From positions 6,170 to 70,169 of the forward strand of contig DATNQI010000069.1 of assembly GCA_036704125.1 (NCBI GenBank): DNA of 64,000 nucleotides. The letters are read 5' to 3'. Shown in pieces: positions 1-34,706 of the stretch; positions within the stretch are counted from its first letter, which is position 1, and each line of letters starts with the position of its first letter. This stretch comes from Pantanalinema sp. (GTDB lineage Bacteria > Cyanobacteriota > Sericytochromatia > S15B-MN24 > UBA4093). The notes below the pieces were generated by a model. The model had not been told where the DNA came from, did no database searches, and worked only from the letters and a program-made list of their open reading frames with translations. Position numbers and translations under genes: made by a program.

Positions 1-3000
1 ACCCTTCGCCACGCGGGGCTGGTCGTGACCCTCGCCATCCACGCGGCGCTCAAGCTCATCGCCCTGGCAGCCGTCGCCCTGCTTTCCCTGCGGCGCTTCC
101 CCTCGCCCTTCGCCGACCCCGCGGTCTGGCCCCACCTGACGATCGGCAGCACCCCCGACAACACCTTCTCGAACTGGATGGGCTACCTGCTGCTGAGCAT
201 GGGCGCGGTCGTCCTGCTGCCCTCCATCTTTCACGTGTGCGTGGTGGAGAACACCCGCGAGGCGGACATCGTGACGGCCCGGTGGGCCTTCCCCCTCCAC
301 TCCCTGGTCCTGTACGCCCTCTTGATCCCCATCGCCCTGGGCGGGGCCCTCGCCGGCCTCTCCGGCGCCGGGGTGCAGGCCTCCGTCCTGGTGCTGCCCT
401 GGCAAGCGGGCTCGCTCCAATTGAGCCTGCTCGCCTACCTGGGGGCGATCGCCGCGGCCTCGGGGATGGCCGTCGTCACGGTCCTGGCGCTCACCAACAT
501 CGTGATGAGCGACCTGCTGCTGCCCGCCCTCAGGCGCCACGTGCACGCGCTGGGGCCCTACCTGCGGCCGCTGAGGTGGGGGATCATCCTCGGCGTCGCG
601 CTGTCGGCCTTCGGGATGTGGGCCCTCACCGACGTCGCCTTCCTCGCCCAGTTCGGCCTGGTCTCCTTCATCGCCGCGGCTCAGCTCGCTCCCGCCTTCT
701 TCCTGGGGCTGGTCTGGCCCGGGCTGCCGGGGCGAGCGGTCACGTGGGGCCTGGGGCTCTCAATTTTCCCCTGGCTCTACACCGCCCTGCTGCCGAATCT
801 CGCCGGCAAGATCCCCCTGCTATCGGCGATCGTCGCGCGCGGACCGTGGGGGATCGACTGGCTTCGCCCCACGGCCATGTTCGGGATGAGCGGGCTGGAC
901 CCCTACGTCCATGCGGCCTTCTGGTGCCTGGCGGCGAACATGGGGGCGATCCTCCTGTGCGCGCTGCGGCGTCCACTGTCGACCGAGCGCGAGCAGCGCG
1001 CGATCGCGCTGCTGAAGGGTGACAAGCGCTCGCTCGGCCTTCACCGCCGGCTCCTCAAGGCGATCTCGCCAGAGGAGATGGAGGCCGTCCTGAGGCGCTT
1101 CCTGGAACCGGATCAGGCCGACTCCGAGCTCGCGCGGATCCGCCGCACCCTCGAGACGGTCGATCTGCCCCTCGAGACCAGGCAGCTGATGGCCCGCCAG
1201 GACCTCGAGCGCGTCCTGAGCGGACCGCTCGGGCCGGCGATCGCCGGCGCCGTGGTCCGGCAGTACTTCCCCATCGCGGAAGAGCCCGTCCCGGACGCCC
1301 TCGAGGCCTTCAAGACGATGGAGCAGGCGCTCGCCCTCAACCGGGCGGACCTGATCAACCGCCTCAAGGAGATGGGCGTCCTCAACGCGGTGGCCGAGCG
1401 CCTGGTGGCCGAGCGGGATCCCGAGCGCATGCTCGCCGAGGTCGGCGCGCTCCTGAGCGACAGCTTCCAGCTCGACCTGGTGGGCACGCTGCTTATCGAG
1501 GGCGACCAGGGGCGCCTGAGCGGCCGGCACGGCTTCAGGGCGAGCGACGATCGCTCGTTCAGGATTCCCGAGGGCTCGGTGCTCGAAGAAGCGATCCGAT
1601 CGCGCGCGCTCCGGGTCCTGACGCTGCCTCTGGAGGTGGACCCGCGCGATCCCTTCATGCGAGGCGAGGGGCTCGAGACCCTGGTCTACGTCCCGATCTC
1701 GCTGCCCGAGAACCTGATCGGCATGCTCGTCTGCGGCATCCGGGGCACGCCCCGGCACGTCTCCCCCGAGTTCAAGAACCTCCTGAGCGCGATCGCCAGC
1801 GAGCTCGCCCTTGCGATCGCCAACGCCCTGCACCGGCAGCGCGAGGACCAGCTCAGGCGGCAGCTCGAGGTCACCCTGGACAACCTGGCGGACGCGGTGG
1901 CGGTGGTCCAGCAAGACGGCCGCATCGTCCTGATCAACGACGCGTTCGCCGGGCTCATCCAGGCCAGCGACAAGGAACGCCTCCTCGGCATGAGCCTCGG
2001 CGAGCTGGTGGCGACGGTCGCGCTCAGGGACCTCTCGGGGACGGCGATCCCCCAGGAGCGCAGCGCGACCTTCCAGGCCCTGAAGGGGAGGAAGATCGAC
2101 CTCCAGGCGTGCTGGACGGGGCTGCAAGGCCGGCGCTACGTCGTCAGCATCTCCAGCGTCCCCATCTTCGACGCCAAGGGGACGGCAATCCAGGCCGTCA
2201 CCGTCATCCGGGACATCACCGAGATCTACCAGCTCAAGGAGGCCCTCGAGGAGCGCGTCGAAGAGCGAACCACCGAGCTCTCGCGCGAGCGGGACCTCCT
2301 CAAGAGCGCCAACGAGAAGCTCGCGGCGGCCCTCGAGGACCTCCGCAGCCTGGAGAAGGTGAAGGCCGCCTTCGTGAACGCCGTCTCCCACGACCTGCGC
2401 ATCCCGCTCACCGGCATCGTCGGCTATGCGGAGCTCCTGGAGGAGGGGATCGGCGGAGCGCTCGGCGAGCAGCAGCTGGACTTCGTGACCCAGATCATGG
2501 AGGCGTCCCGGCGAATGACCCGCCTGCTCAACGAGTTCCTGGACTACGCCCGGATGGAGTCCGGCCAGTTCGCGATCGAGCCGCGCGCGCTCGATCTCGC
2601 GGAGCTCGTCCCGCAGGCGATCGCGGGCTTTCGGCCTGCCGTCGACAAGAAGGGAGTCACCCTGAGCGCGGCGATCGCCCCGGAGCTCCCCGAGGTCTCG
2701 GCGGACCCCGACCGGATCACCCAGATCCTGGGCAACCTGCTCTCCAACGCCGTCAAGTTCACCCCCCCGGGCGGGGAAATCCGGGTGAGCGCCCATCCTC
2801 GCGGGCAAAGCGTCGTGCTCGAGGTGGCCAACGACGGCCCCGGGATCCCCCCCGAGGCCCTGCCCCACATGTTCGAGCGCTTCTTCCAGACCGAGTCGGG
2901 GCGCCAGGCGGGAGGCACCGGGCTCGGCCTCTCCATCGTCAAGAGCCTGGTGGAGGCCCACGGCGGCGAGGTCTGGGTCGAATCGACCCCGGGCAAGGAC

Positions 3001-3033
3001 ACGACCTTCCGCTTCACCCTCCCCGTGGCCTGA
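1..3033 (+). CDS. Sensor histidine kinase, 5'-partial (frame is open from base 1). Polytopic membrane N-terminal sensor domain, then GAF, PAS, HisKA and HATPase_c
   Basis: Multiple hydrophobic TM helices in first ~330 aa. HisKA H-box 'AVSHDLRIPLTGIVGYAELL'. ATPase motifs 'LSNAVKFTPPGGEI', 'DGPGIP', 'GGTGLGLSIVKSLVEAHGGEVWVES'. No stop between base 1 and the listed M at 25. Confidence 0.85.
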   Translation, partial: TLRHAGLVVTLAIHAALKLIALAAVALLSLRRFPSPFADPAVWPHLTIGSTPDNTFSNWMGYLLLSMGAVVLLPSIFHVCVVENTREADIVTARWAFPLHSLVLYALLIPIALGGALAGLSGAGVQASVLVLPWQAGSLQLSLLAYLGAIAAASGMAVVTVLALTNIVMSDLLLPALRRHVHALGPYLRPLRWGIILGVALSAFGMWALTDVAFLAQFGLVSFIAAAQLAPAFFLGLVWPGLPGRAVTWGLGLSIFPWLYTALLPNLAGKIPLLSAIVARGPWGIDWLRPTAMFGMSGLDPYVHAAFWCLAANMGAILLCALRRPLSTEREQRAIALLKGDKRSLGLHRRLLKAISPEEMEAVLRRFLEPDQADSELARIRRTLETVDLPLETRQLMARQDLERVLSGPLGPAIAGAVVRQYFPIAEEPVPDALEAFKTMEQALALNRADLINRLKEMGVLNAVAERLVAERDPERMLAEVGALLSDSFQLDLVGTLLIEGDQGRLSGRHGFRASDDRSFRIPEGSVLEEAIRSRALRVLTLPLEVDPRDPFMRGEGLETLVYVPISLPENLIGMLVCGIRGTPRHVSPEFKNLLSAIASELALAIANALHRQREDQLRRQLEVTLDNLADAVAVVQQDGRIVLINDAFAGLIQASDKERLLGMSLGELVATVALRDLSGTAIPQERSATFQALKGRKIDLQACWTGLQGRRYVVSISSVPIFDAKGTAIQAVTVIRDITEIYQLKEALEERVEERTTELSRERDLLKSANEKLAAALEDLRSLEKVKAAFVNAVSHDLRIPLTGIVGYAELLEEGIGGALGEQQLDFVTQIMEASRRMTRLLNEFLDYARMESGQFAIEPRALDLAELVPQAIAGFRPAVDKKGVTLSAAIAPELPEVSADPDRITQILGNLLSNAVKFTPPGGEIRVSAHPRGQSVVLEVANDGPGIPPEALPHMFERFFQTESGRQAGGTGLGLSIVKSLVEAHGGEVWVESTPGKDTTFRFTLPVA

Positions 3034-3185
3034 AGCAACCTGCCTCCGGTTTGGCCAAGCACTTCCGTCCCCTCGCGAATTGATCCCCGGGCGCTGCGAT
3101 CGCATCATCGGCTCGGAAAACCCCGGCTCGCCCAGCGTGCGAGCAGGGGAAAAGGCAACGCGAGCGTGAGAGGGAGGGCCGAGCC

Positions 3186-5267
3186 ATGAGCGCCACCGCG
3201 AGGATCCGCAACGTCGCCGTCATCGGAGCCCACGGGGTCGGCAAGACGACCCTGGTCGAGTGCATGCTCTTCGACATGACCATGGTCCCGCAGCGTGGGC
3301 GGATCGAGACGGGCAACACCGCCACCGATTTCGACAGCGAGGAGATCCTGCGCCAGATGTCGATCCAGACGGGCATCGCCTCGGGCGAATGGCGCGACCA
3401 CGCCATCAACCTGCTCGACGTGCCGGGCAGCCACGACTTCTCGACCGACGCCCGGCTGGCCATGGCCATGGCCGACGCGGCCGTCCTCGTCGTCAACGCC
3501 GGCAAGGGGGTGGACGCCAACACCCGCAAGGCCTTCGAAACGGCCCGCGAGCTGGGGCTGAGCGTCTTCATCTTCATCAACGGGGTCGAGCAGGACACGG
3601 CCAAGGACTACCCCTTGATCCTGCAGGAGATCCACGAGCGGCTGACCCCCGGTGCGGTGCCGCTCGAGCTGCCCGTCGGCAGGGGCCGGACCTTCAAGGG
3701 CGACGTGGACCTGGTCGGCCTCAGGACCTGGTACTTCGCCCCCGAGTCGGGCGAGGTCACCGAGGTCCCCGACACCCCGCCGGAGCTCGCCGAGCTGGTC
3801 CAGCGCTACCACACCTCCATGGTCGAGGGGGTCGCCGAGCTTCACGACGAGGTCCTCGAGCGCTACCTGGGCGGCCAGGAGCCGGCACAGGCGGAGCTTG
3901 CGGCGCTGCTGCGCGCCGACACCCTCGAAAACAAGCTGGTCCCGGTCATGTGCGGCTCCGCCTTGGGCAACGCCGGCGTGCGTCCCCTGCTGGATGCGAT
4001 CGTCGACCTTCTGCCCTCGCCGCTCGATCGCAGGCCCCCGGCCGTGATCGACCTCGACACCCAGGCCCAGGTCCCGGTGGCCCCCACCCCGGACGCGCCG
4101 GCAGCGGCGGTCGTGCTCAAGACCTTCGCGGATCCCTACCTCGGCAAGATCAGCGTCTTCCGGGTGCTGTCGGGGACGATTTCCTCCGACTCCCACCTCT
4201 TCAACTCCCGGCGCCAGGCCCCCGAGCGGCTGGGCCGCCTCTTCAAGCTCGTCGGAAAGAAGCAGACGCCTGTCGATCGGCTCCTGGCGGGCGACATCGG
4301 GGCCACCACCAAGCTCAAGGAGACCCAGACCGGCGACACGCTGGTGGCCGAGGGTCACTCCCAGCGGCGGCTCGCCTATCCCATGCCGGAGCCTGCGACC
4401 TCCATCTGGTCGGTGGCCATCTCGCCCCTCTCCAAGAACGACGAGGCCAAGCTCGCGATCGCCCTTGCCAAGCTCCGAGAGGAGGACCCCGCCCTGGGGG
4501 TCTCGGTGGAGGGCCGGACCCACCGCACCGTCCTGAGCGGCCAGGGGCAGACCCACCTGGAGGTGACCCTGGCCAAGCTCGCCAACCGCTACAACCTGGA
4601 GGTCTCGCAGGCCGAGCCCGAGGTCCCCTACCGCGAGACGATCGCGGGCCGCGCCCAGGGGCAGGGCAAGCACAAGAAGCAGACCGGCGGGCGCGGCCAG
4701 TACGGGGACGTGTGGCTAAGGATCGAGCCCCTTGCGCGCGGGGCGGGGTTCAAGTTCGTGGACGCGGTGGTGGGCGGGGCCGTGCCGCGCAACTTCATCC
4801 CCGCGGTCGAGAAGGGGGTGCGCGAAACCCTGGAGCAGGGGATCGTCGCGGGCTACCCCATCGTCGACGTCCAGGTGACGCTGTACGACGGCTCATCCCA
4901 CTCGGTCGACAGCTCTGAGATGGCCTTCAAGATGGCCGCGCACCTGGCCATGCGCAAGGTGTTCGCCGAGGCGCAACCGCTGCTGCTTGAGCCCATCCTG
5001 GACGTCCAGGTGTCGGCCCCCGAGGAGGCCCTCGGTGACGTCATGGGCGATCTCAACGGCAGGCGCGCGCACATCGAGGGGATGGAGGGCACCTCCATCC
5101 GCGCCAAGGTGCCCCTTGCCGAGCTCGCGGGCCTGGTGACGGCGGTGCAGAGCATCACCCGCGGCCAGGGGACCCTGGAGTCGACCTTCGCCCACTACCA
5201 GGAGGTTCCGCCCCACCTGCAGGCCAGGCTGCTCTCTGAGCTGAAGGCGGAGACGGCCGCCCACTGA
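3186..5267 (+). CDS. EF-G family translational GTPase paralog, 693 aa
   Basis: P-loop 'GAHGVGKTT', G4 'NGVEQD', full EF-G domain architecture and length. Switch II reads 'DVPGSHDF' instead of canonical 'DTPGHVDF'. Confidence 0.8.
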   Translation: MSATARIRNVAVIGAHGVGKTTLVECMLFDMTMVPQRGRIETGNTATDFDSEEILRQMSIQTGIASGEWRDHAINLLDVPGSHDFSTDARLAMAMADAAVLVVNAGKGVDANTRKAFETARELGLSVFIFINGVEQDTAKDYPLILQEIHERLTPGAVPLELPVGRGRTFKGDVDLVGLRTWYFAPESGEVTEVPDTPPELAELVQRYHTSMVEGVAELHDEVLERYLGGQEPAQAELAALLRADTLENKLVPVMCGSALGNAGVRPLLDAIVDLLPSPLDRRPPAVIDLDTQAQVPVAPTPDAPAAAVVLKTFADPYLGKISVFRVLSGTISSDSHLFNSRRQAPERLGRLFKLVGKKQTPVDRLLAGDIGATTKLKETQTGDTLVAEGHSQRRLAYPMPEPATSIWSVAISPLSKNDEAKLAIALAKLREEDPALGVSVEGRTHRTVLSGQGQTHLEVTLAKLANRYNLEVSQAEPEVPYRETIAGRAQGQGKHKKQTGGRGQYGDVWLRIEPLARGAGFKFVDAVVGGAVPRNFIPAVEKGVRETLEQGIVAGYPIVDVQVTLYDGSSHSVDSSEMAFKMAAHLAMRKVFAEAQPLLLEPILDVQVSAPEEALGDVMGDLNGRRAHIEGMEGTSIRAKVPLAELAGLVTAVQSITRGQGTLESTFAHYQEVPPHLQARLLSELKAETAAH

Positions 5268-5354
5268 GGGGCGGCCGTCACGAAAGTTTGCAATTCCCTC
5301 TCGGTCGACCCTGAACTTATGTGAACCCATCGAGCCTCTCTAGAACGCCGAAAA

Positions 5355-5379
5355 GCCCCGGAGGCAATGCCTCCGGGGC
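5355..5379 (-). terminator. Rho-independent terminator hairpin for the HU gene, also sits between convergent EF-G paralog and HU
   Basis: Perfect 10-bp stem gccccggagg / cctccggggc with 5-nt loop. Minus-strand reading is followed by TTTT (complement of aaaa at 5351-5354). Confidence 0.7.
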
Positions 5380-5392
5380 TCTCGATCAAGCG

Positions 5393-5704
5393 CTAGCGGC
5401 CGCGGCCGGCGCCGGCGAGCTGCTTCTTGCGGCCCTCGATCCGCTCCTTGAGGTTCTTGCCGGCGGTCCAGACCGGGCTCTTCTTGGCGGGGATCTTGAG
5501 GACGGCGCCGGTGCGGGGGTTGCGACCCTCGCGGGCGGCGCGCTGGCGGACCTGGAAGGTGCCGAAGCCGACCAGGGTCACCTTGTGGCCGCGCGACAGG
5601 GCCTGCGAGATGGCCTCGATGGTGGCGTTGAGGCACTCGCCGGCTTCCTTCTGGGAAACCTTCGCCTTGGTGCTGATGGCCTTGATGAGCTCTTCCTTGT
5701 TCAT
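5393..5704 (-). CDS. hup: HU/IHF family nucleoid-associated DNA-binding protein
   Basis: 'MNKEELIKAISTKA...GFGTFQVRQRAAREGRNPRTG' is a canonical HU fold signature, ~100 aa. Confidence 0.9.
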   Translation of the reverse strand: MNKEELIKAISTKAKVSQKEAGECLNATIEAISQALSRGHKVTLVGFGTFQVRQRAAREGRNPRTGAVLKIPAKKSPVWTAGKNLKERIEGRKKQLAGAGRGR

Positions 5705-5794
5705 AGCGGGTCTTTCCTCCTAGTGTGAGATGAAGAGTGTGGGATGGGGCGCCTTTCCTGAACGGCGTAACAAAGTTTAATGAACTTGAGTGTG

Positions 5795-5823
5795 ATTATA
5801 GGAACCCACTTCTGAAAAAGCAA
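5795..5823 (-). promoter_or_regulatory. Sigma70-type promoter for HU (minus strand): TTGCTT-N17-TATAAT
   Basis: Perfect TATAAT (complement of attata 5795-5800) with TTGCTT 17 bp upstream, in an unusually AT-rich island upstream of hup. A T/A tract (gttttttcggaaaaaaaatttt, 5833-5856) lies just upstream and could act as an UP element. Confidence 0.55.
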
Positions 5824-6010
5824 GGGGTCGAGCGTTTTTTCGGAAAAAAAATTTTACAAGCGCGCCTCACCCCTGCCTATCGCCGCCCCCGACACGGCCA
5901 AGGGCGGCCCTTTCAGGGGGGGTGCCGCGGTGCTATACTGAAGAAAAACGATTGCCCGGATCTCGCCCCTCCCGGCCCGAGATCCCGGCCTGTCACGGAG
6001 GGTTAACGCC

Positions 6011-6259
6011 ATCGCCGGCCATTCAAAGTGGGCGAACATCAAGCACACCAAGGCGAAGCAGGACGCCCGAAAAGGCGCCGTGTTCACCGAGATGTCGCGC
6101 GAGATCATCATCGCCGCCAGGACCGGGGGCTCCGACCCCGCGGGCAACTTCCGCCTGTGCCAGGCCATCGACAAGGTCAAGCTCGACGGCGTGCAGCGCG
6201 TCTGCTCCAACTTCGAGCTGCCCGACGCGCTGATGGCCGACCTCCCGGCGCTGGCCTAG
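6011..6259 (+). pseudogene. YebC/PmpR-family N-terminal remnant, ~83 codons, with start codon position occupied by ATC
   Basis: Frame-2 translation '[57 protein letters not shown]...' matches the universal YebC N-terminus '[12 protein letters not shown]...'. GGAGG sits 8 nt upstream of the ATC. Similarity is lost after ~55 codons and there is a stop at 6257-6259; no ATG in frame. Confidence 0.6.
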
Positions 6260-6263
6260 CCCC

Positions 6264-7295
6264 ATGGCTCGTTCGCCGCGCGTCGCCCTCACTGCCCTCG
6301 CCCTCGCCCTCGCGCTGGGGGCGGGGCTCGTCGCTTTCTGGAGGCAAGGCAAGCCCGCGGAGCGCGCCGGGGCGCGCGAGGTGACCCTCTACTACCTGGA
6401 CCCCCAGGCCATGTTCCTGGTCCCCGTCAGCCGCCGCCTTCCTTTGCCTCCCGGCACCGACCGGGCGCTGCAAGCGGCCCTGGATCGGCTCGAAGACGTC
6501 CCGCCGGGCCTCGCGAGCGCCCTTCCCCCCATGACCCGAGCGACGGTCAGTGGGATCAAGGACGGAAAGGCGGGGGTCACCCTTCGCCTCTCGGGCGCTG
6601 CCCCGGGCAGCGGCGGCGAGCAGCTGATGGCCGCCGCCGTGGTCCGGACCGCCGGGGCCATCGACGGGATCCAGGAGGTCGCCCTTTCGCTCGAGGGCCC
6701 CGACGGCAAGCCGCTCGCGAGCGAGCACCTGGACCTCTCGCAGCCCCTCTCGCCCACGGACCCCGGCATGGAGAACCTCTACCTCGAGGGCGGCAACGGC
6801 CTGACCGTGACCATCTACTACCGCGTGCCCCGCTCCTCCTACCTGGTCCCCGTCCGGGTCCCCCTGCCGGCCGCCTACCAGAACGAACCGCTCAAGGGTG
6901 GCTTCGCGCTCCTGCTCGACGGCCCGCCGCCGGCGCTCGCCGCCTTCCTTTCCCCCAGCCTGCCGGGCGCCTGGCGCTGGAACGGCCTCGAGGGGACCAC
7001 CGCCCGCATCCTGTGGAAGGGGAGCGAGCCTCCGCAGCCGCTCGCCATCCGCGCCCTGGCCCTCACCCTGACCGAGCGAGAAGGCATCCGGGCGGTGCGC
7101 ATCGACACGGAAGCAGGCCCCCTCGCGACCAAGGTGGGTCCCTTCGACCTGGGCCGTCCCGTCCCGCGCCCCGAGGCGATCAACCCGCTCGACGACAAGG
7201 TGTCGGTGCTCGGCGCCCCGGGTATGACCGTTAGACCGGCGACGGGCCCCCTCGCGCTCAGGGGCGAGCAGGCTCGCGCCGGGCTCGCCGTTTAA
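6264..7295 (+). CDS. Secreted/lipoprotein-like protein with tandem GerMN (germane) domains
   Basis: Signal peptide 'MARSPRVALTALALALALGAG'. Two repeated blocks resembling 'VTLYYLDPQAMFLVPVSRRLP' and 'VTIYYRVPRSSYLVPVRVPLP'. Sits immediately upstream of the amidase. Confidence 0.65.
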   Translation: MARSPRVALTALALALALGAGLVAFWRQGKPAERAGAREVTLYYLDPQAMFLVPVSRRLPLPPGTDRALQAALDRLEDVPPGLASALPPMTRATVSGIKDGKAGVTLRLSGAAPGSGGEQLMAAAVVRTAGAIDGIQEVALSLEGPDGKPLASEHLDLSQPLSPTDPGMENLYLEGGNGLTVTIYYRVPRSSYLVPVRVPLPAAYQNEPLKGGFALLLDGPPPALAAFLSPSLPGAWRWNGLEGTTARILWKGSEPPQPLAIRALALTLTEREGIRAVRIDTEAGPLATKVGPFDLGRPVPRPEAINPLDDKVSVLGAPGMTVRPATGPLALRGEQARAGLAV

Positions 7296-26297: not shown

Positions 26298-26306
26298 GGA
26301 GCCCCC

Positions 26307-27317
26307 ATGACCCTCTCTTCGACCCTTCCCTCCTGCCTGGCGCTCTTCACGGCGCTCATCCCCCTCTGGGCCCCGGCCGCCGAGGCCAAGCCCGAGGCCT
26401 CCGTCTCGGGGGTCGTCTTCGCCGACTACAGCGCCCCCACCTCGGGCCAGCTCGCGGGCTTCAACCTGACCCGGGCCTTCCTCACGGGCAAGGTCCGGAT
26501 CGACAACGTCTGGTCGGGCGTCATCACCCTCAACCCCTACGCCGAGCCCCTGCCTAGCGGCTCGACCGAGCCCCACGACGTCCTCCTCCAGAACGCCTAC
26601 CTCCAGGCGGACGGCCTCTATCCCGGCGGTAGCCTGCAGCTCGGGATGGTGACCCTGCCCTGGACCGAGTACGAGTATGGCTTCTGGGGCTACCGCATGC
26701 TGGGCACCGTGCCGCTCGCCGGCGGCATCGGCAAGGGCCAGACCTACGTCGGCACCTGGGACAAGGGCCTCAAGGCCCTGGGCAGCAACGGCCCGCTCGA
26801 CTACGCCCTGGCGGTCTACAACGGGGAGGGCTTCCGCTCCGGCGAGACCGACGGCTTCAAGTCCGCCCAGGGGCGCGTGAGCCTCGTCGCCCCCTTCGGC
26901 ATGGAGCTGACGGCGCTCGGCGAGCGGAGCCGGACGGCGGCCAAGTTCGTCAGCGATCGCGCCTCGGTCCTGCTGGGCTTCAGGAGCGACACCTTCCGCT
27001 GCGCCCTCCAGGGCACCCGCCTCTGGGACCAGGCCAGCGAGACAAGCCCCTTCGGAATGGGCCACGTCCTGAGCGCCTACGAAGTGGCCGCGCTGCCGAT
27101 CCCGGGCGTGCCGGGGGTCGAGTTGCTGCTGCGCGGCGACTACATCGAGCCGAGCGAGATCACCGCGGGCGACGAGCGCCTCGAGGCCATCGCGGGCCTC
27201 TCCTTCAAGCCCGCCAAGGGGGTCACCCTGGTGCTCGACAACCAGAACATCACCCGCTACGGCGCCACGACCACCAACGCCAACGTGGTCGCCCTGCACA
27301 CCAGCTTGGCGTTCTAA
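26307..27317 (+). CDS. Outer-membrane beta-barrel protein (porin-like)
   Basis: Signal peptide 'MTLSSTLPSCLALFTALIPLWAPAAEA', alternating amphipathic beta-strands, C-terminal 'ALHTSLAF' with terminal Phe. Confidence 0.6.
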   Translation: MTLSSTLPSCLALFTALIPLWAPAAEAKPEASVSGVVFADYSAPTSGQLAGFNLTRAFLTGKVRIDNVWSGVITLNPYAEPLPSGSTEPHDVLLQNAYLQADGLYPGGSLQLGMVTLPWTEYEYGFWGYRMLGTVPLAGGIGKGQTYVGTWDKGLKALGSNGPLDYALAVYNGEGFRSGETDGFKSAQGRVSLVAPFGMELTALGERSRTAAKFVSDRASVLLGFRSDTFRCALQGTRLWDQASETSPFGMGHVLSAYEVAALPIPGVPGVELLLRGDYIEPSEITAGDERLEAIAGLSFKPAKGVTLVLDNQNITRYGATTTNANVVALHTSLAF

Positions 27318-32379: not shown

Positions 32380-34212
32380 TCAGGCTTCCTCTCTCAGTGG
32401 CTGAACAAGGGGGATGGACGGATCGGATGAAGAATCGGCGGCAGCGTCCGCTTCCTGGGCCACCAGGAGCTCCAGCGCCCGCTGGAACTGGCTCGCAGAG
32501 AAGCGGGCATCCTCGAAGGTCCGGCTCATGATGGCGAAGCAGGTCTCGAGATCGCCGCTCTGGCGGACCTGATGGAGCAGCACGCTGAACCGGCGCCAGT
32601 CGCCGTTGAAGGTGTGGACGCAGACCCCGTAGGCCTCGATCAGCTCGAGCGTCGGGAACGCCGCCTCGTGGCGCTGGACCTCGTCCAGGGTGATGCGATG
32701 GTCCCCCTGGAGGATCTCCGAAAGGGCAAGCAGACAGGCCGTACGCTCGGGCTGGGGGGCCGCGTCGATGAGCCAGGCATCCAAGGCCTGGGGGTCGGCG
32801 TTGAGCCAGTCGAAAGCCCGCTTCAGCCGGAAGTAGCGATACAGCAAAGGGGGCTCGGGGCAGCGCTCGCGCAGGTGCAGGATCTTGATGCGACCGAGCT
32901 TTTCCTCGGAGTCGCCGGCGCTCGCGAGCACCGCCTCGAGCCAGTAGATGTCGTCGGCGCTCGAGATGAACTGCTCGGCCAGGGCCTCCACGTCGCCCGC
33001 GCTGAGCTTGAGCTCCTTGAAGAGCAGGACGGCGGTCTCGTAGCGCTTCAGGCGGGCGCGATCCGTCAGGGTGTTGGCGAGGTGCTCGGCCCGCTCGAAG
33101 CTCAGATCCCCGAGCCCCAGCCGGAACCACAGCTCGCCCACCAGGCCGAGCACCTGGCTGCGCTCCTCGGACTCGACCCGCTTGAGGACCAGTCGATCGA
33201 TGTCGTCCACGCTCAGCCCCGAGCTCTGGAAGGCGCGCACCGCCGTCAGGTACCGCCCCAGCGCGCCGATCTCGGGCGCCCATTCCCGCAGCTGCATGAG
33301 GACCACCCGATCGACCGAGCGTCCCAGCTCGGTCATGCCCTTGAGGGCGCGATCGAGCCACTCCAGCTCGGCCTGGGAATCGGCGAAGGAGAGGTGGAAG
33401 GTGTCCAGATCGCCGACCTGGACCTCGTACTCCTCGAAGAGGTTGAGGGTCTTGGAGAGGCGGCGCACGGTGATCCGGTCGCGGACCCCCTCGACCAGGC
33501 CCCGGATGTCGTCGTAGCGCTCGATCCGCTTGACCCTGAGCGCCACAAGGTCCAGCAGCGCGGCCGTGGCGGCCATGGCCTCCTCGTCGACGACCCGATC
33601 GAGCAGCAAGGCGTCGAAGGAGGCGTCCACCGGCCCCAGGGCCTCGTAGGCCGACGCGCAGCCCAGGAAGGTCGCGATGGCGGGCGTGCCACCGGCACCG
33701 CCGAGGCGCTCGATCGCCTTCTGGAGGTTGTGGATCGCCACCGGGCGGCCGAGCTGCTGGTAGACGGAGGCCACCGTGCGAAGGGACTCCACGCTCACCC
33801 TGGCCGGCTCCGCGCCGAGCACGCCCAAGAGGGCGTCCAGGTCGTGAAGGTCCTTGGGTCGGGTCAGGTCGAAGACGCCGTAAAGGGTGGAGGCGGAGAT
33901 GCCCAGATCCAGCCAGGCGATCAGGCGCTCGGGGTCGTAGGCGAAGCCCTCGAGGCCCATCAGCGCGATCACCTCGACGCAGGCGTTGAACGAGGCCTCG
34001 TCGTGGACGCGCGCCTCGAACGCGCCGACGTCGGGATCGTCCCCCGCCCGCTCGCCGAAGTTGGTTCGGACGATCGGGATCAAGGCCCGCACGCGGTCCT
34101 CGGGGGCCGCCTCCTCGGCGCGCGAGGAAGCATGCCCGTCGAGCCCGCCGCGCCGCCGCAGGACGGCGGCGAAGGATGCCGTGATCCGGTCGAACCAACC
34201 CGTCGTCGACAT
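32380..34212 (-). CDS. Hypothetical 610-aa protein of unknown function embedded between cheW and cheX
   Basis: Long ORF that is codirectional and tightly packed (5-bp gaps to both neighbours). No TM segments or recognisable motifs; Leu/Ala/Arg/Glu-rich, probably all-helical. Confidence 0.6.
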   Translation of the reverse strand: MSTTGWFDRITASFAAVLRRRGGLDGHASSRAEEAAPEDRVRALIPIVRTNFGERAGDDPDVGAFEARVHDEASFNACVEVIALMGLEGFAYDPERLIAWLDLGISASTLYGVFDLTRPKDLHDLDALLGVLGAEPARVSVESLRTVASVYQQLGRPVAIHNLQKAIERLGGAGGTPAIATFLGCASAYEALGPVDASFDALLLDRVVDEEAMAATAALLDLVALRVKRIERYDDIRGLVEGVRDRITVRRLSKTLNLFEEYEVQVGDLDTFHLSFADSQAELEWLDRALKGMTELGRSVDRVVLMQLREWAPEIGALGRYLTAVRAFQSSGLSVDDIDRLVLKRVESEERSQVLGLVGELWFRLGLGDLSFERAEHLANTLTDRARLKRYETAVLLFKELKLSAGDVEALAEQFISSADDIYWLEAVLASAGDSEEKLGRIKILHLRERCPEPPLLYRYFRLKRAFDWLNADPQALDAWLIDAAPQPERTACLLALSEILQGDHRITLDEVQRHEAAFPTLELIEAYGVCVHTFNGDWRRFSVLLHQVRQSGDLETCFAIMSRTFEDARFSASQFQRALELLVAQEADAAADSSSDPSIPLVQPLREEA

Positions 34213-34217
34213 GGGGG

Positions 34218-34706
34218 CTAGACGGGCGCCTTATCCAAGGCGGCGATCTCTTCCATGCTGAGCAAGCGCTGGAGGTCGAGCAGGATGATGAGGCGATCGC
34301 CGAGCTGGCCGACGCCCTTGAAGAACGCGGCGTCGATGCCGCTCGCCACGAGCTCGGGGGTCGCCGAGACGGCCTCGGAGTCGAGGCGAAGCACCTCACG
34401 CACCGCGTCGACGATCAGGCCGACGGTCTTGCCGGCCACGTCCACGATGATGATGCGGGTCGCCTTGGTCGGCTCGGCCGAGGCCATGCCGAAGCGCCGG
34501 CGCAGGTCGATGACGGGCACGATCTTTCCGCGCAGGTTCACCACGCCCTCGACGAAGGAGGGGGCGCGGGGCACGCGGGTGATGGAGGACATGCGCACGA
34601 TCTCCTGGACCGCGGAGATGTCGACCGCGTACTCCTCCTCGGCCAGGCGGAAGCTGGCGAGCTGAAGCAAGGTCGAAGCTTGGCGCTCGATGGTGGTTTC
34701 GGACAT
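34218..34706 (-). CDS. cheW: Chemotaxis coupling protein CheW
   Basis: 162 aa, 'EEEYAVDISAVQEIVRM...VEGVVNLRGKIVPVIDLRRRFG...GLIVDAVREVLRL'. Confidence 0.95.
   Translation of the reverse strand: MSETTIERQASTLLQLASFRLAEEEYAVDISAVQEIVRMSSITRVPRAPSFVEGVVNLRGKIVPVIDLRRRFGMASAEPTKATRIIIVDVAGKTVGLIVDAVREVLRLDSEAVSATPELVASGIDAAFFKGVGQLGDRLIILLDLQRLLSMEEIAALDKAPV

Follow-up and report, generated by a model that had tools for sequence, protein, structure and literature searches.

The gene at positions 3186 to 5267 of the stretch analysed is a member of the described EFG II (EF-G2) subfamily of EF-G duplicates, and a real, ordinary feature. What reads as a missing universal catalytic histidine in its product is the default among second EF-G copies, a large family that has been known for a long time; the absence is therefore not special to this gene, and does not rank it as a discovery. 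Taking the evidence as a whole, we consider it fairly probable that the gene encodes an EFG II-type duplicate which serves as an alternative factor, has its own promoter region and hydrolyses GTP, in all likelihood, with little or no stimulation by the ribosome. The EF-G2 family, whose physiological role has been worked out in no more than two or three organisms, thereby gains an uncharacterised non-photosynthetic cyanobacterial clade.

The gene and its place among EF-G proteins

The window (the whole 64-kb stretch of DNA that was analysed) would belong to a high-G+C, flagellated, Sericytochromatia-like lineage, that is, a non-photosynthetic cyanobacterial one. The gene, whose product is called the query below, is located as follows:

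3186..5267, + strand: EFG II-type (EF-G2-like) elongation factor G paralogue (ORF, translation, Pfam, NF009381, diagnostic residues, AlphaFold model)

The ORF starts with ATG, is preceded by a Shine-Dalgarno sequence (GGGAGGG, 3172-3178) and encodes a 693 aa product. Pfam recognised all five EF-G domains (GTP_EFTU, EF-G_D2, EFG_III, EFG_IV and EFG_C), and the top PDB sequence match in HMMER alignments was T. thermophilus EF-G (564 bits, 40% identity), all in agreement with the initial annotation of a full-length EF-G-family protein. The AlphaFold model (pLDDT 90.8) gave TM scores of 0.85-0.91 against ribosome-bound EF-G and EF-G2 structures. Translation of the ORF also confirmed the two unusual motifs annotated, GAHGVGKTT in G1 and DVPGSHDF in switch II. 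The latter is found identically in P0002-P0005, four proteins 85-87% identical to the query that come from independent assemblies, and is thus not a sequencing artefact. The dN/dS ratio of the gene was 0.24-0.34 overall, 0.13-0.23 in domains IV-V and 0.26-0.40 in the G domain: selection is purifying yet relaxed, and strictest on domains IV-V.

The initial annotation had suggested a comparison with the EF-G1, EF-G2, TetM, RF3 and LepA families. Among the profiles compared, the query passed only NF009381 (PRK12740.1-5, 'elongation factor G' subfamily), over its full length and with 806.3 bits for a cut-off of 583. It stayed below the cut-offs of TIGR00484, the canonical EF-G equivalog (587 bits, cut-off 659.4), of NF009377 for the Thermus-type EF-G2 (557 bits, cut-off 890) and of NF058620 for the Bacteroides-type EF-G2 (528 bits, cut-off 1000). 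By profile score, the query is in the same broad subfamily as the Thermus- and Bacteroides-type EF-G2, and outside both equivalog groups. A contig search with the query returned, among the matches listed, only unrelated EF-Gs, 37-42% identical, from Firmicutes, Chloroflexi and others.

Diagnostic residues point to the same subfamily. Margus 2011 (PMC3150367) lists as type I residues of EFG II, in T. thermophilus EF-G1 numbering, Gly19, Leu28, Ser64, Thr316, Gly360 and Lys/Arg379, and as type II positions D224, V258, L272, K498, K499, E543 and G633. All six type I residues are present in the query (G14, L23, S59, T313, G357 and K376), and six of the seven type II positions (V254, L268, K497, K498, E542 and G632). 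At the seventh, Asp is replaced by H220, as in 30 of 52 members of the clade. The relaxation of G2 from RGITI to xxxSx is seen as RQMSI; G1, the DxPG of G3 and the GSA of G5, which EFG II keeps, are present, while the G4 motif NKxD is absent (NGVE). Conversely, RGITI, DTPGH and NKxD of canonical EF-G are all altered, and the gene has no str-operon position. In a distance-based neighbour-joining tree of 151 sequences, in which spdEFG1 and spdEFG2 were not explicitly sampled, the split between EFG I and the rest was recovered in 60 of 60 bootstraps and left the query together with EFG II; EFG I consisted there of 7 monophyletic sequences, namely six representatives and T. thermophilus EF-G.

Two other identities were weighed. 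The query shares its G domain and domains II-V with the ribosomal protection proteins (Tet(M)/Tet(O)-like) and with RF3, LepA and BipA, and the depositor of PDB entry 7uvp named it 'TetQ'. The scores are all far below the respective cut-offs, however: 293 bits with tet_protect (cut-off 775), 167 with RF3 (473), 94 with LepA (534) and 138 with BipA/TypA (757). Moreover the loops of domain IV are those of an EF-G, and membership in one of these groups is extremely improbable. The protein could also be the only or main translocase of the organism, encoded by a fast-evolving canonical fusA. It is full length, its domain IV tips are perfect, its top PDB sequence match is the canonical EF-G mentioned above, and its NCBI name is 'elongation factor G'. 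Against this, it lies under the TIGR00484 cut-off with all EFG II signatures present, the str operon was found in 0 of 9 contexts, and its dN/dS of ∼0.3 exceeds what one expects of a core factor that is essential. In addition, wherever a genome had just one EF-G gene among the 305 surveyed (Margus 2011, PMC3150367), that gene was always EFG I. We regard this identity as highly unlikely. The 64-kb window contained no other EF-G gene, and a tblastn search of the window and loci L001-L006 that started from T. thermophilus EF-G detected EFG II genes only. Membership in EFG II also bears on the proposal of a regulatory or rescue paralogue rather than a translocase: the paralogue type and the divergent GTPase centre stand, the novelty of the kind does not.

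The GTPase centre and the domain IV loops

The motifs that matter for nucleotide hydrolysis and for ribosome binding are the following:

3225..3251, + strand: G1 / P-loop GAHGVGKTT, residues 14-22 (translation, alignment, Table 1 of Margus 2011, PMC3150367)
3351..3365, + strand: G2 / switch I RQMSI in place of RGITI (alignment; PMC3150367)
3417..3440, + strand: G3 / switch II DVPGSHDF, residues 78-85 (alignments, census, model)
3579..3590, + strand: G4 NGVE in place of NKMD (alignment, census)
4668..4712, + strand: domain IV loop 1, basic EFG II motif KHKK-QTGGRGQYGDV, residues 495-509 (alignment; type II positions 498/499 of Margus 2011)
4884..4916, + strand: domain IV loop 2 YDGSSHSVDSS, residues 567-577, tip His572 conserved (alignment)

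In the P-loop, GxxxxGKT is unbroken and starts with the Gly of EFG II type, with Gly17 where the canonical AHIDAGKT has Asp. Ser59 stands for the Mg-coordinating Thr, which is an EFG II signature. In G4 the Lys is gone and Glu is found where Asp stood, while the GSA of G5 is retained. The altered G2 and G4 are further departures, beyond those annotated initially. Judging from these motifs, the query keeps its phosphate- and Mg-binding elements (GxxxxGKT, Ser59, Asp78-x-x-Gly81), and the alignment shows that RGITI, the P-loop Asp and the hydrophobic-gate Ile of the catalytic centre are lost. The domain IV loop 1 motif is nearly invariant across the family; QTGGRGQYGDV, YDGSxHxVDSS and KK497/498 are likewise invariant or almost so, and the ribosome-binding elements (domain IV loops and KK497/498) are retained.

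We then considered switch II. HMMER alignment of the query with T. thermophilus EF-G has no gap in this region: in DTPGHVDF the catalytic His lies opposite Ser82, and the Val that follows it opposite His83. The annotated replacement of the catalytic His by Ser is thus correct. Among 139 EFG II-like cluster representatives, the residue at this position was most often Tyr (59), Phe (29) or Asp (11), and more rarely Ser (7), Leu (6) or His (5). By this census, absence of the catalytic His is the ordinary state of the known EFG II / EF-G2 subfamily; EF-G2 proteins of solved structure are likewise devoid of it. In the Sericytochromatia-type clades, 17 of 52 relatives do have His there, so that activity may vary among close relatives. 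Altered GTPase chemistry remains a reasonable reading of the query's GTPase centre, which departs from the canonical one; the part of the claim that made it an unusual paralogue falls, His loss being the norm in EFG II.

The initial annotation further held that the His had moved by one position, and named a clade-typical indel, realigning it with the catalytic position, as the result that would overturn its view. No such indel was found. The spacing of DxPGxxDF is constant in all ∼260 aligned sequences, which rules out an indel-shifted His, and relatives have Gly, Ser or Ala just after the catalytic site, His being there only in P0001-P0005; P0010, the sister of these five, reads SG at the two positions. 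His83 is therefore a substitution private to P0001-P0005 rather than a displaced His.

A functional version of the shift, in which His83 acts as a register-shifted catalytic His, perhaps with Ser82, activates the hydrolytic water and makes the query a proficient ribosome-dependent GTPase, can still be argued: SH is strictly kept in the five closest sequences, a Gly codon must change at two nucleotides to encode His, switch II is flexible, and T. thermophilus EF-G2 is reported, as cited, to hydrolyse GTP without the canonical His. It has against it the unchanged register, as well as the lack of a His at the +1 position in all of the 138 other EFG II-like representatives and in every relative beyond P0001-P0005, the sister having SG. 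In the AlphaFold model, moreover, the switch II helix begins with His83, where canonical EF-G has Val, and the other catalytic elements (RGITI, P-loop Asp and hydrophobic-gate Ile) are lost too. We judge it quite unlikely. Another possibility concerns base specificity. The eroded G4 NGVE (NxxE, as in YchF/Ola1) could mean that ATP or any NTP is used, or that the protein is effectively nucleotide-independent. The NxxE motif is held responsible for the adenine preference of YchF/Ola1 (PMC8779481), NKxD has lost its Lys throughout the Sericytochromatia-type clade (Gly or Ala in 39/52), and its Asp is a Glu in the query. Nevertheless, of the four relatives with 85-87% identity, the two that differ here (P0002 and P0005) have NGVD; in the closer clade Asp and Glu swap freely, an acidic residue being present in 42 of the 42 members listed. 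The GSA of G5 is retained, and G4 variants lacking Lys (NGxD, NQxD, NRxD) are scattered widely over EFG II in the census of 139 representatives. A change of nucleotide is, on balance, unlikely.

These data nevertheless bear on the subfamily description. Only 53 of the 139 EFG II-like representatives have NK[ML]D, and retention of NKxD is thus not an EFG II-defining feature; its conservation is a description from 2011 data. The guanine-specificity motif is eroded in EFG II much more widely than this description says. There is a small chance that in the narrow clade of the query (Sericytochromatia-type, one 50%-identity cluster) the G domain exceeds the usual EFG II state, either by use of ATP or relaxed nucleotide use, or by a new catalysis through Ser82-His83, perhaps with His16 of the P-loop. 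Should this be true, the protein would be a mechanistically distinct ribosome-bound NTPase with a dedicated, regulated promoter.

The upstream region and the neighbouring kinase

The features that flank the gene are the following:

1..3033, + strand: membrane sensor histidine kinase (GAF-PAS-HisKA-HATPase) truncated at the window edge, a neighbour only (Pfam, full-length locus)
3050..3068, + strand: conserved upstream element TTTGGCCAAGCACTTCCGT, core CCAAG-N3-TTCCG at 3055-3067 (cross-genome conservation)
3080..3108, + strand: promoter-like pair TTGATC, 17 nt, CATCAT (putative; conservation in the four closest genomes, alignment)
5354..5380, no strand assigned: 12-bp G+C-rich hairpin between the EF-G and HU genes (sequence; T-run after the hairpin on the minus strand)

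The large membrane GAF-PAS histidine kinase annotated directly upstream is indeed there, as Pfam domains and predicted membrane spans agree. Its full gene, in locus L001 (the window genome's own contig), encodes 1194 aa with ∼11 predicted N-terminal membrane spans, and the window edge cuts it at residue 185. It adjoins the EF-G gene only in the window genome and in one 87% identical relative (L088, kinase 76% identical). In L002 and L087 (85% identity), rpmA and a terminator hairpin are directly upstream of the EF-G gene, whereas in the window genome the order is the C-terminus of L27, a small ORF, the kinase and the EF-G gene. We conclude from these two arrangements that the kinase was inserted recently, separating rpmA from the EF-G gene, and that its link to EF-G is incidental. 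Other upstream neighbours among relatives were L27, a reverse ORF, MGDG synthase, a cyanophycin-synthetase-like gene and others, with no str operon. Downstream, the HU gene (5393-5704, minus strand) is convergent with the EF-G gene, and the hairpin between them is the probable terminator closing the EF-G transcription unit.

A functional module, in which kinase and paralogue are co-transcribed or the factor is under control of the kinase, would fit with the two genes being on the same strand, 152 bp apart and with no predicted terminator between them, and with the recurrence of the pair in L088. This does not hold up well against the insertion seen by comparison with L002 and L087, nor against the seven other contexts in which no kinase is adjacent upstream. 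No response regulator is adjacent either, and the ∼150 bp ahead of the EF-G start codon, with its promoter-like elements, is conserved whatever the upstream neighbour, with or without a kinase. Control by the kinase, as proposed initially, is accordingly very unlikely.

The alignments suggest instead that the EF-G gene is an independent unit with its own conserved upstream region, containing a putative promoter and regulator site. A consensus scan for sigma-70 promoters and terminators between 2800 and 5800 gave no promoter and terminators at chance level only; the promoter-like elements rest instead on cross-genome conservation. The TTTGGCCAAGCACTTCCGT element occurs once in the window, for 0.11 expected. 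It was found 89-134 nt before the orthologue in seven loci (L001-L004 and L087-L089), and was absent from the 85 other loci examined. We consider it a candidate regulator-binding site, and a possible handle for finding the regulator, hence the conditions that switch on the alternative translation factor. A sigma-54 promoter was envisaged for the TGGCCA-N5-TTCC element, and rejected since the GG and GC dinucleotides vary among relatives. The Rfam scan of 2900-6300 gave a sub-threshold isrL match only, on the terminator hairpin, and no known leader or riboswitch.

Proposed role and comparison with known EF-G proteins

In the scheme that we favour, the EF-G gene would be transcribed from its own conserved upstream region, next to which the kinase would have come by recent insertion. 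The protein would bind the factor site of the ribosome and reach the decoding centre as EF-G does; the bound nucleotide would switch its conformation, and the ribosome would stimulate hydrolysis little or not at all. By analogy with the Bacteroides and Mycobacterium EF-G2, it may, under particular conditions, carry out translocation in an alternative, slow or energy-sparing way, or else hold ribosomes, and routine translocation would be left to a canonical fusA elsewhere.

Compared to canonical EF-G (EFG I; 1DAR, 2BM0), the query has the same five domains, length and fold and identical domain IV tip motifs, at 40% identity, whereas RGITI, DTPGH, NKxD and AHIDAGKT are all altered. It resembles EFG II as described by Margus, Remm & Tenson 2011 (PMC3150367) in all six type I residues and 6/7 type II positions, in the G2 relaxed to xxxSx, in the basic KK ahead of domain IV loop 1, in the fast evolution of its G domain, in a gene outside the str operon and in a branch apart from EFG I. 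It differs in G4, given as a conserved NKxD in that paper and N[G/A]x[D/E] in the query's clade. Relative to EF-G1 the query has few indels, unlike the highly diverged alpha-proteobacteria/Cyanobacteria sub-subgroup of EFG II.

T. thermophilus EF-G2 (1WDT/2DY1) is also an EFG II member: its His is replaced (DAPGYGDF), its P-loop begins with Gly and its G4 is non-canonical (TKLD). The query model matches 1wdt with a TM of 0.86 (rmsd 3.3 Å). It has Tyr where the query has Ser, keeps the Lys and Asp of G4, and its sequence similarity to the query is moderate (419 bits), the query being under the NF009377 cut-off. Ribosome-dependent GTPase and translocation have been reported for this protein in spite of the missing His (Connell 2007, as cited), so that His loss alone is no proof of lost hydrolysis. 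With B. thetaiotaomicron EF-G2 (fusA2; 7UVP/8DMF), the structural match is a TM of 0.90 (8dmf). Sequence identity is 32%, the query is under the NF058620 cut-off, and lineage and regulator are different. Carbon limitation induces fusA2 238-fold, and the promoter involved has a regulator site dedicated to it (PMC6989115).

M. smegmatis EF-G2 (9K0Z/9K10) resembles the query in its replaced His, its altered G1, G2, G4 and G5, and its structure (TM 0.89 with 9k0z). It has Tyr98 at the His position and minimal or no ribosome-dependent GTPase, and H88Y in EF-G1 nearly abolishes GTPase (bioRxiv 10.64898/2026.05.25.727771). The same study proposes that it holds post-translocation ribosomes under stress. 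Its domain IV loops are described as shifted from the tRNA, whereas the loop sequences of the query, 36% identical overall, are canonical.

Family placement of the EF-G homologue

Three features describe the gene and its GTPase motifs:

3186-5267, + strand: EF-G homologue ORF, ATG start, 693 codons
3225-3251 (residues 14-22), + strand: G1/P-loop GAHGVGKTT, from the translation
Residues 78-85, + strand: switch II DVPGSHDF, from the translation

The ORF is preceded by a Shine-Dalgarno sequence (GGGAGGG), and its product carries the Pfam domains GTP_EFTU, EF-G_D2, EFG_III, EFG_IV and EFG_C, in this order. Its top PDB sequence match was T. thermophilus EF-G (564 bits, ~40% identity). ORF, Pfam and alignment analyses agreed with the initial annotation on the reading frame, G1, switch II and the upstream kinase; its list of departures was right for G1 and switch II, but left out G2 (RQMSI versus RGITI) and G4 (NGVE versus NKMD). 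DVPGSHDF was also found in four more proteins (85-87% identity) from separate assemblies, and is therefore real sequence.

Scores of the window protein against family models
NF009381 (NCBIfam, PRK12740.1-5, 'elongation factor G' subfamily): 806 bits, cut-off 583, passes
TIGR00484 (canonical EF-G): 587 bits, cut-off 659, below
NF009377 (Thermus-type EF-G2): 557 bits, cut-off 890, below
NF058620 (Bacteroides-type EF-G2): 528 bits, cut-off 1000, below
tet_protect: 293 bits, cut-off 775, below
RF3: 167 bits, cut-off 473, below
BipA (TypA): 138 bits, cut-off 757, below
LepA: 94 bits, cut-off 534, below

EF-G has been split into four subfamilies by Margus, Remm and Tenson (2011, PMC3150367), who marked EFG II by six residues with differential conservation and by seven positions where selection is stronger. 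In a MAFFT alignment with T. thermophilus EF-G numbering as reference, the window protein had all six of the former (G14, L23, S59, T313, G357 and K376) and 6 of the 7 latter, including the KK ahead of domain IV loop 1. A neighbour-joining tree of 151 sequences gave an EFG I-type clade that excluded it in 60 of 60 bootstraps, all EFG I-type sequences having RGITI, DTPGH[VI]DF and NK[ML]D. Judged by these residues and this separation, the window protein is an EFG II (EF-G2-type) paralogue. The EF-G paralogue call made initially is thus borne out, and the alignment against EF-G families proposed with it led to EFG II, while the Thermus and Bacteroides EF-G2, tet_protect, RF3, LepA and BipA cut-offs were not reached.

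The AlphaFold model matched ribosome-bound EF-G with TM-scores of 0.85-0.91, and the EF-G2 of Bacteroides (8DMF), M. smegmatis (9K0Z) and T. thermophilus (1WDT) with 0.90, 0.89 and 0.86 respectively. At unrelated EF-G loci (L027, L050, L064, L073, L076, L080), tblastn spans of 2.5-2.8 kb for ~680 matched residues imply that some Chloroflexi and Patescibacteria carry insertions of ~150-260 codons in their EF-G genes; these may be inteins.

Switch II and the other GTPase motifs

Switch II aligned to T. thermophilus EF-G without a gap, so that Ser82 stands in the column of the DTPGHVDF catalytic His, and His83 in that of the Val after it. The initial annotation had described the catalytic His as replaced by Ser, with a His shifted by one position. 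This is no shift of register: the DxPGxxDF spacing is constant, without indel, across all aligned sequences, and the +1 His is limited to P0001-P0005 (the window protein and its nearest group), the sister P0010 having SG and relatives having Gly, Ser or Ala at +1. In the AlphaFold model (pLDDT 90.8) the switch II helix starts at His83, a position held by Val in canonical EF-G.

How unusual the missing His is was measured by a motif census of the best 150 matches among 1.84 billion cluster representatives. The catalytic column held His in all 7 EFG I-like sequences; the 139 that were EFG II-like by diagnostic residues had Tyr (59), Phe (29), Asp (11), Ser (7), Leu (6), His (5), Ala (5), Asn (5) and others. 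The rarity implied at first was therefore overstated: by its motif, this switch II is odd among translational GTPases overall, but ordinary within EFG II. Across the narrow clade P0001-P0055 (the window protein and its relatives) the column was His (17), Leu (16), Tyr (8), Ser (7), Val, Phe, Ala or Lys, and in the NJ tree the His-bearing relatives sat in later-branching lineages of the closer clade, except P0046 in the more distant one. These flips and the tree position of the His-bearers suggest a weakly constrained site that either lost the His repeatedly or reverted to it.

The Sericytochromatia-type relatives form two clades. The closer one (P0001-P0042, 58-100% identity, one 50% cluster) has N[G/A/K/R][V/I/F][D/E] as G4; the more distant one (P0046-P0055) retains the Lys and has lost the Asp (NKYA, NKLE, NKLA), and NC10-type homologues, still more distant, retain NKMD. 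G4 is described as conserved in EFG II (PMC3150367). In the 150-representative census non-canonical G4 was dispersed across EFG II, and the erosion seen here is therefore a matter of degree. The phosphate- and Mg-contacting parts (GxxxxGKT, Ser59, Asp78-x-x-Gly81) are retained, with Gly17 replacing the P-loop Asp of canonical AHIDAGKT. In the P-loop (residues 14-22, 3225-3251), most closer-clade members have a His as third residue (G-P/A-H-G-V-G-K-T-T) in place of the hydrophobic-gate Ile of canonical EF-G.

The domain IV tips QTGGRGQYGDV and YDGSxHxVDSS are nearly invariant family-wide. Against three relatives, dN/dS was 0.24-0.34 overall, lowest in domains IV-V (0.13-0.23) and highest in the G domain (0.26-0.40), values probably inflated by strong GC3 bias. 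The gene is under purifying selection, concentrated in domains IV-V.

Transcription unit and neighbouring genes

1-3033 (L001, the genome's own contig, 284-4082): GAF-PAS-HisKA-HATPase kinase (Pfam), upstream of the EF-G gene
3050-3068: candidate upstream element TTTGGCCAAGCACTTCCGT, core CCAAG-N3-TTCCG at 3055-3067, from cross-genome conservation
5354-5380: perfect 12-bp G+C-rich hairpin AGCCCCGGAGGC-AAT-GCCTCCGGGGCT, between the convergent EF-G and HU genes

The 150 bp ahead of the start codon are conserved whether the kinase is present or absent, and contain a promoter-like pair (TTGA(C/T)C, 17 nt, CATCAT). The CCAAG-N3-TTCCG core lies 12 nt 5' of the -35-like hexamer and has a single occurrence in the 64-kb window, against 0.11 expected. 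It was found 89-134 nt 5' of the gene in seven fetched clade loci (L001-L004, L087-L089) and in 0 of 85 other loci, and is retained in relatives down to 60% protein identity regardless of the upstream gene; we regard it as a candidate regulator-binding site. The hairpin has a minus-strand T-run and an Rfam isrL match below threshold; it probably serves as the terminator of HU and may work in both directions. Given the conserved 150 bp, the element and the hairpin, the EF-G gene looks like an independent transcription unit, probably a regulated one.

The 3' synteny is conserved among closer relatives and runs from convergent HU to GerMN, AMIN-amidase, pseudouridine synthase and RNase E/G, and the 5' neighbour varies. 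At L002 and L087 (85% protein identity) SpoVS, rplU and rpmA lie 5' of the gene, with a terminator-like hairpin after rpmA. L001 opens with the 14 C-terminal residues of L27, and then come a membrane ORF of 69 aa, the kinase and the EF-G gene; L088, an 87%-identical relative, also has the kinase (76% identity), and only these two genomes have the membrane ORF and kinase pair between rpmA and the EF-G gene. More distant relatives have yet other 5' neighbours, and a str operon surrounded the gene in 0 of 9 contexts. These gene orders indicate an insertion of the kinase cassette between rpmA and the EF-G gene that is limited to a single shallow lineage. Functional coupling to the adjacent kinase, raised initially as possible joint control, is not supported, since the kinase is confined to that lineage and the 150-bp region is kept without it; the neighbouring kinase is incidental. 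Its full length is 1194 aa (L001), cut at residue 185 by the window start, and its solute-symporter-like N-terminus has ~11 hydrophobic/membrane spans. The SpoVS-rplU-rpmA order before the EF-G gene was seen at L002:8738-12082, L003/L004:7996-12079 and L087:1-2388; in many bacteria the slot 3' of these genes is occupied by the GTPase gene obg.

Elsewhere, a flagellar/chemotaxis cluster (~21200-45500: PilZ, FlhA, two MCPs, CheB, CheR, CheA-CheW, FlhB, FliR, FliN/FliY, FliM, MotA) includes two sizeable ORFs, 26298-27317 (+) and 32380-34230 (-), with coding-like GC3 and no Pfam match. The cluster and the 69% G+C are at odds with the 'Pantanalinema sp.' label (a filamentous photosynthetic cyanobacterium) of the identical NCBI protein, and relatives carry the labels Sericytochromatia or 'Cyanobacteria bacterium'; the MAG label is therefore probably wrong.

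Proposed activity and comparison with known EF-G2 factors

The window protein has the architecture and fold of EF-G, the phosphate-binding elements and the decoding-centre loops, without the canonical catalytic set. No canonical fusA was found within the 64-kb window; one is expected elsewhere in the genome, because in a survey of 305 genomes a lone EF-G gene was always EFG I (PMC3150367). We conclude that the protein adds a new, uncharacterised member to a known family, one that as a rule has lost the catalytic His; what remains of interest is how far G4 has eroded, the private Ser-His pair, and the element conserved upstream of the gene.

By analogy, the factor would bind the ribosome like EF-G, nucleotide-bound, with slow or absent hydrolysis, and under particular conditions could act as an alternative elongation factor or hold ribosomes. 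Two caveats bear on this mechanism: one third of the clade relatives have His at the catalytic position, and T. thermophilus EF-G2, as cited in a preprint (bioRxiv 10.64898/2026.05.25.727771), is reported active despite its lost His. The solved structure of the latter (1WDT) has the motifs GHAGSGKTT, DAPGYGDF and TKLD, the catalytic His being likewise replaced. M. smegmatis EF-G2 has Tyr98 in this place and no detected ribosome-dependent GTPase, and the His-to-Tyr swap in EF-G1 almost wholly abolished GTPase activity; the role suggested for this EF-G2 is to hold ribosomes after translocation when cells are under stress (bioRxiv 10.64898/2026.05.25.727771).
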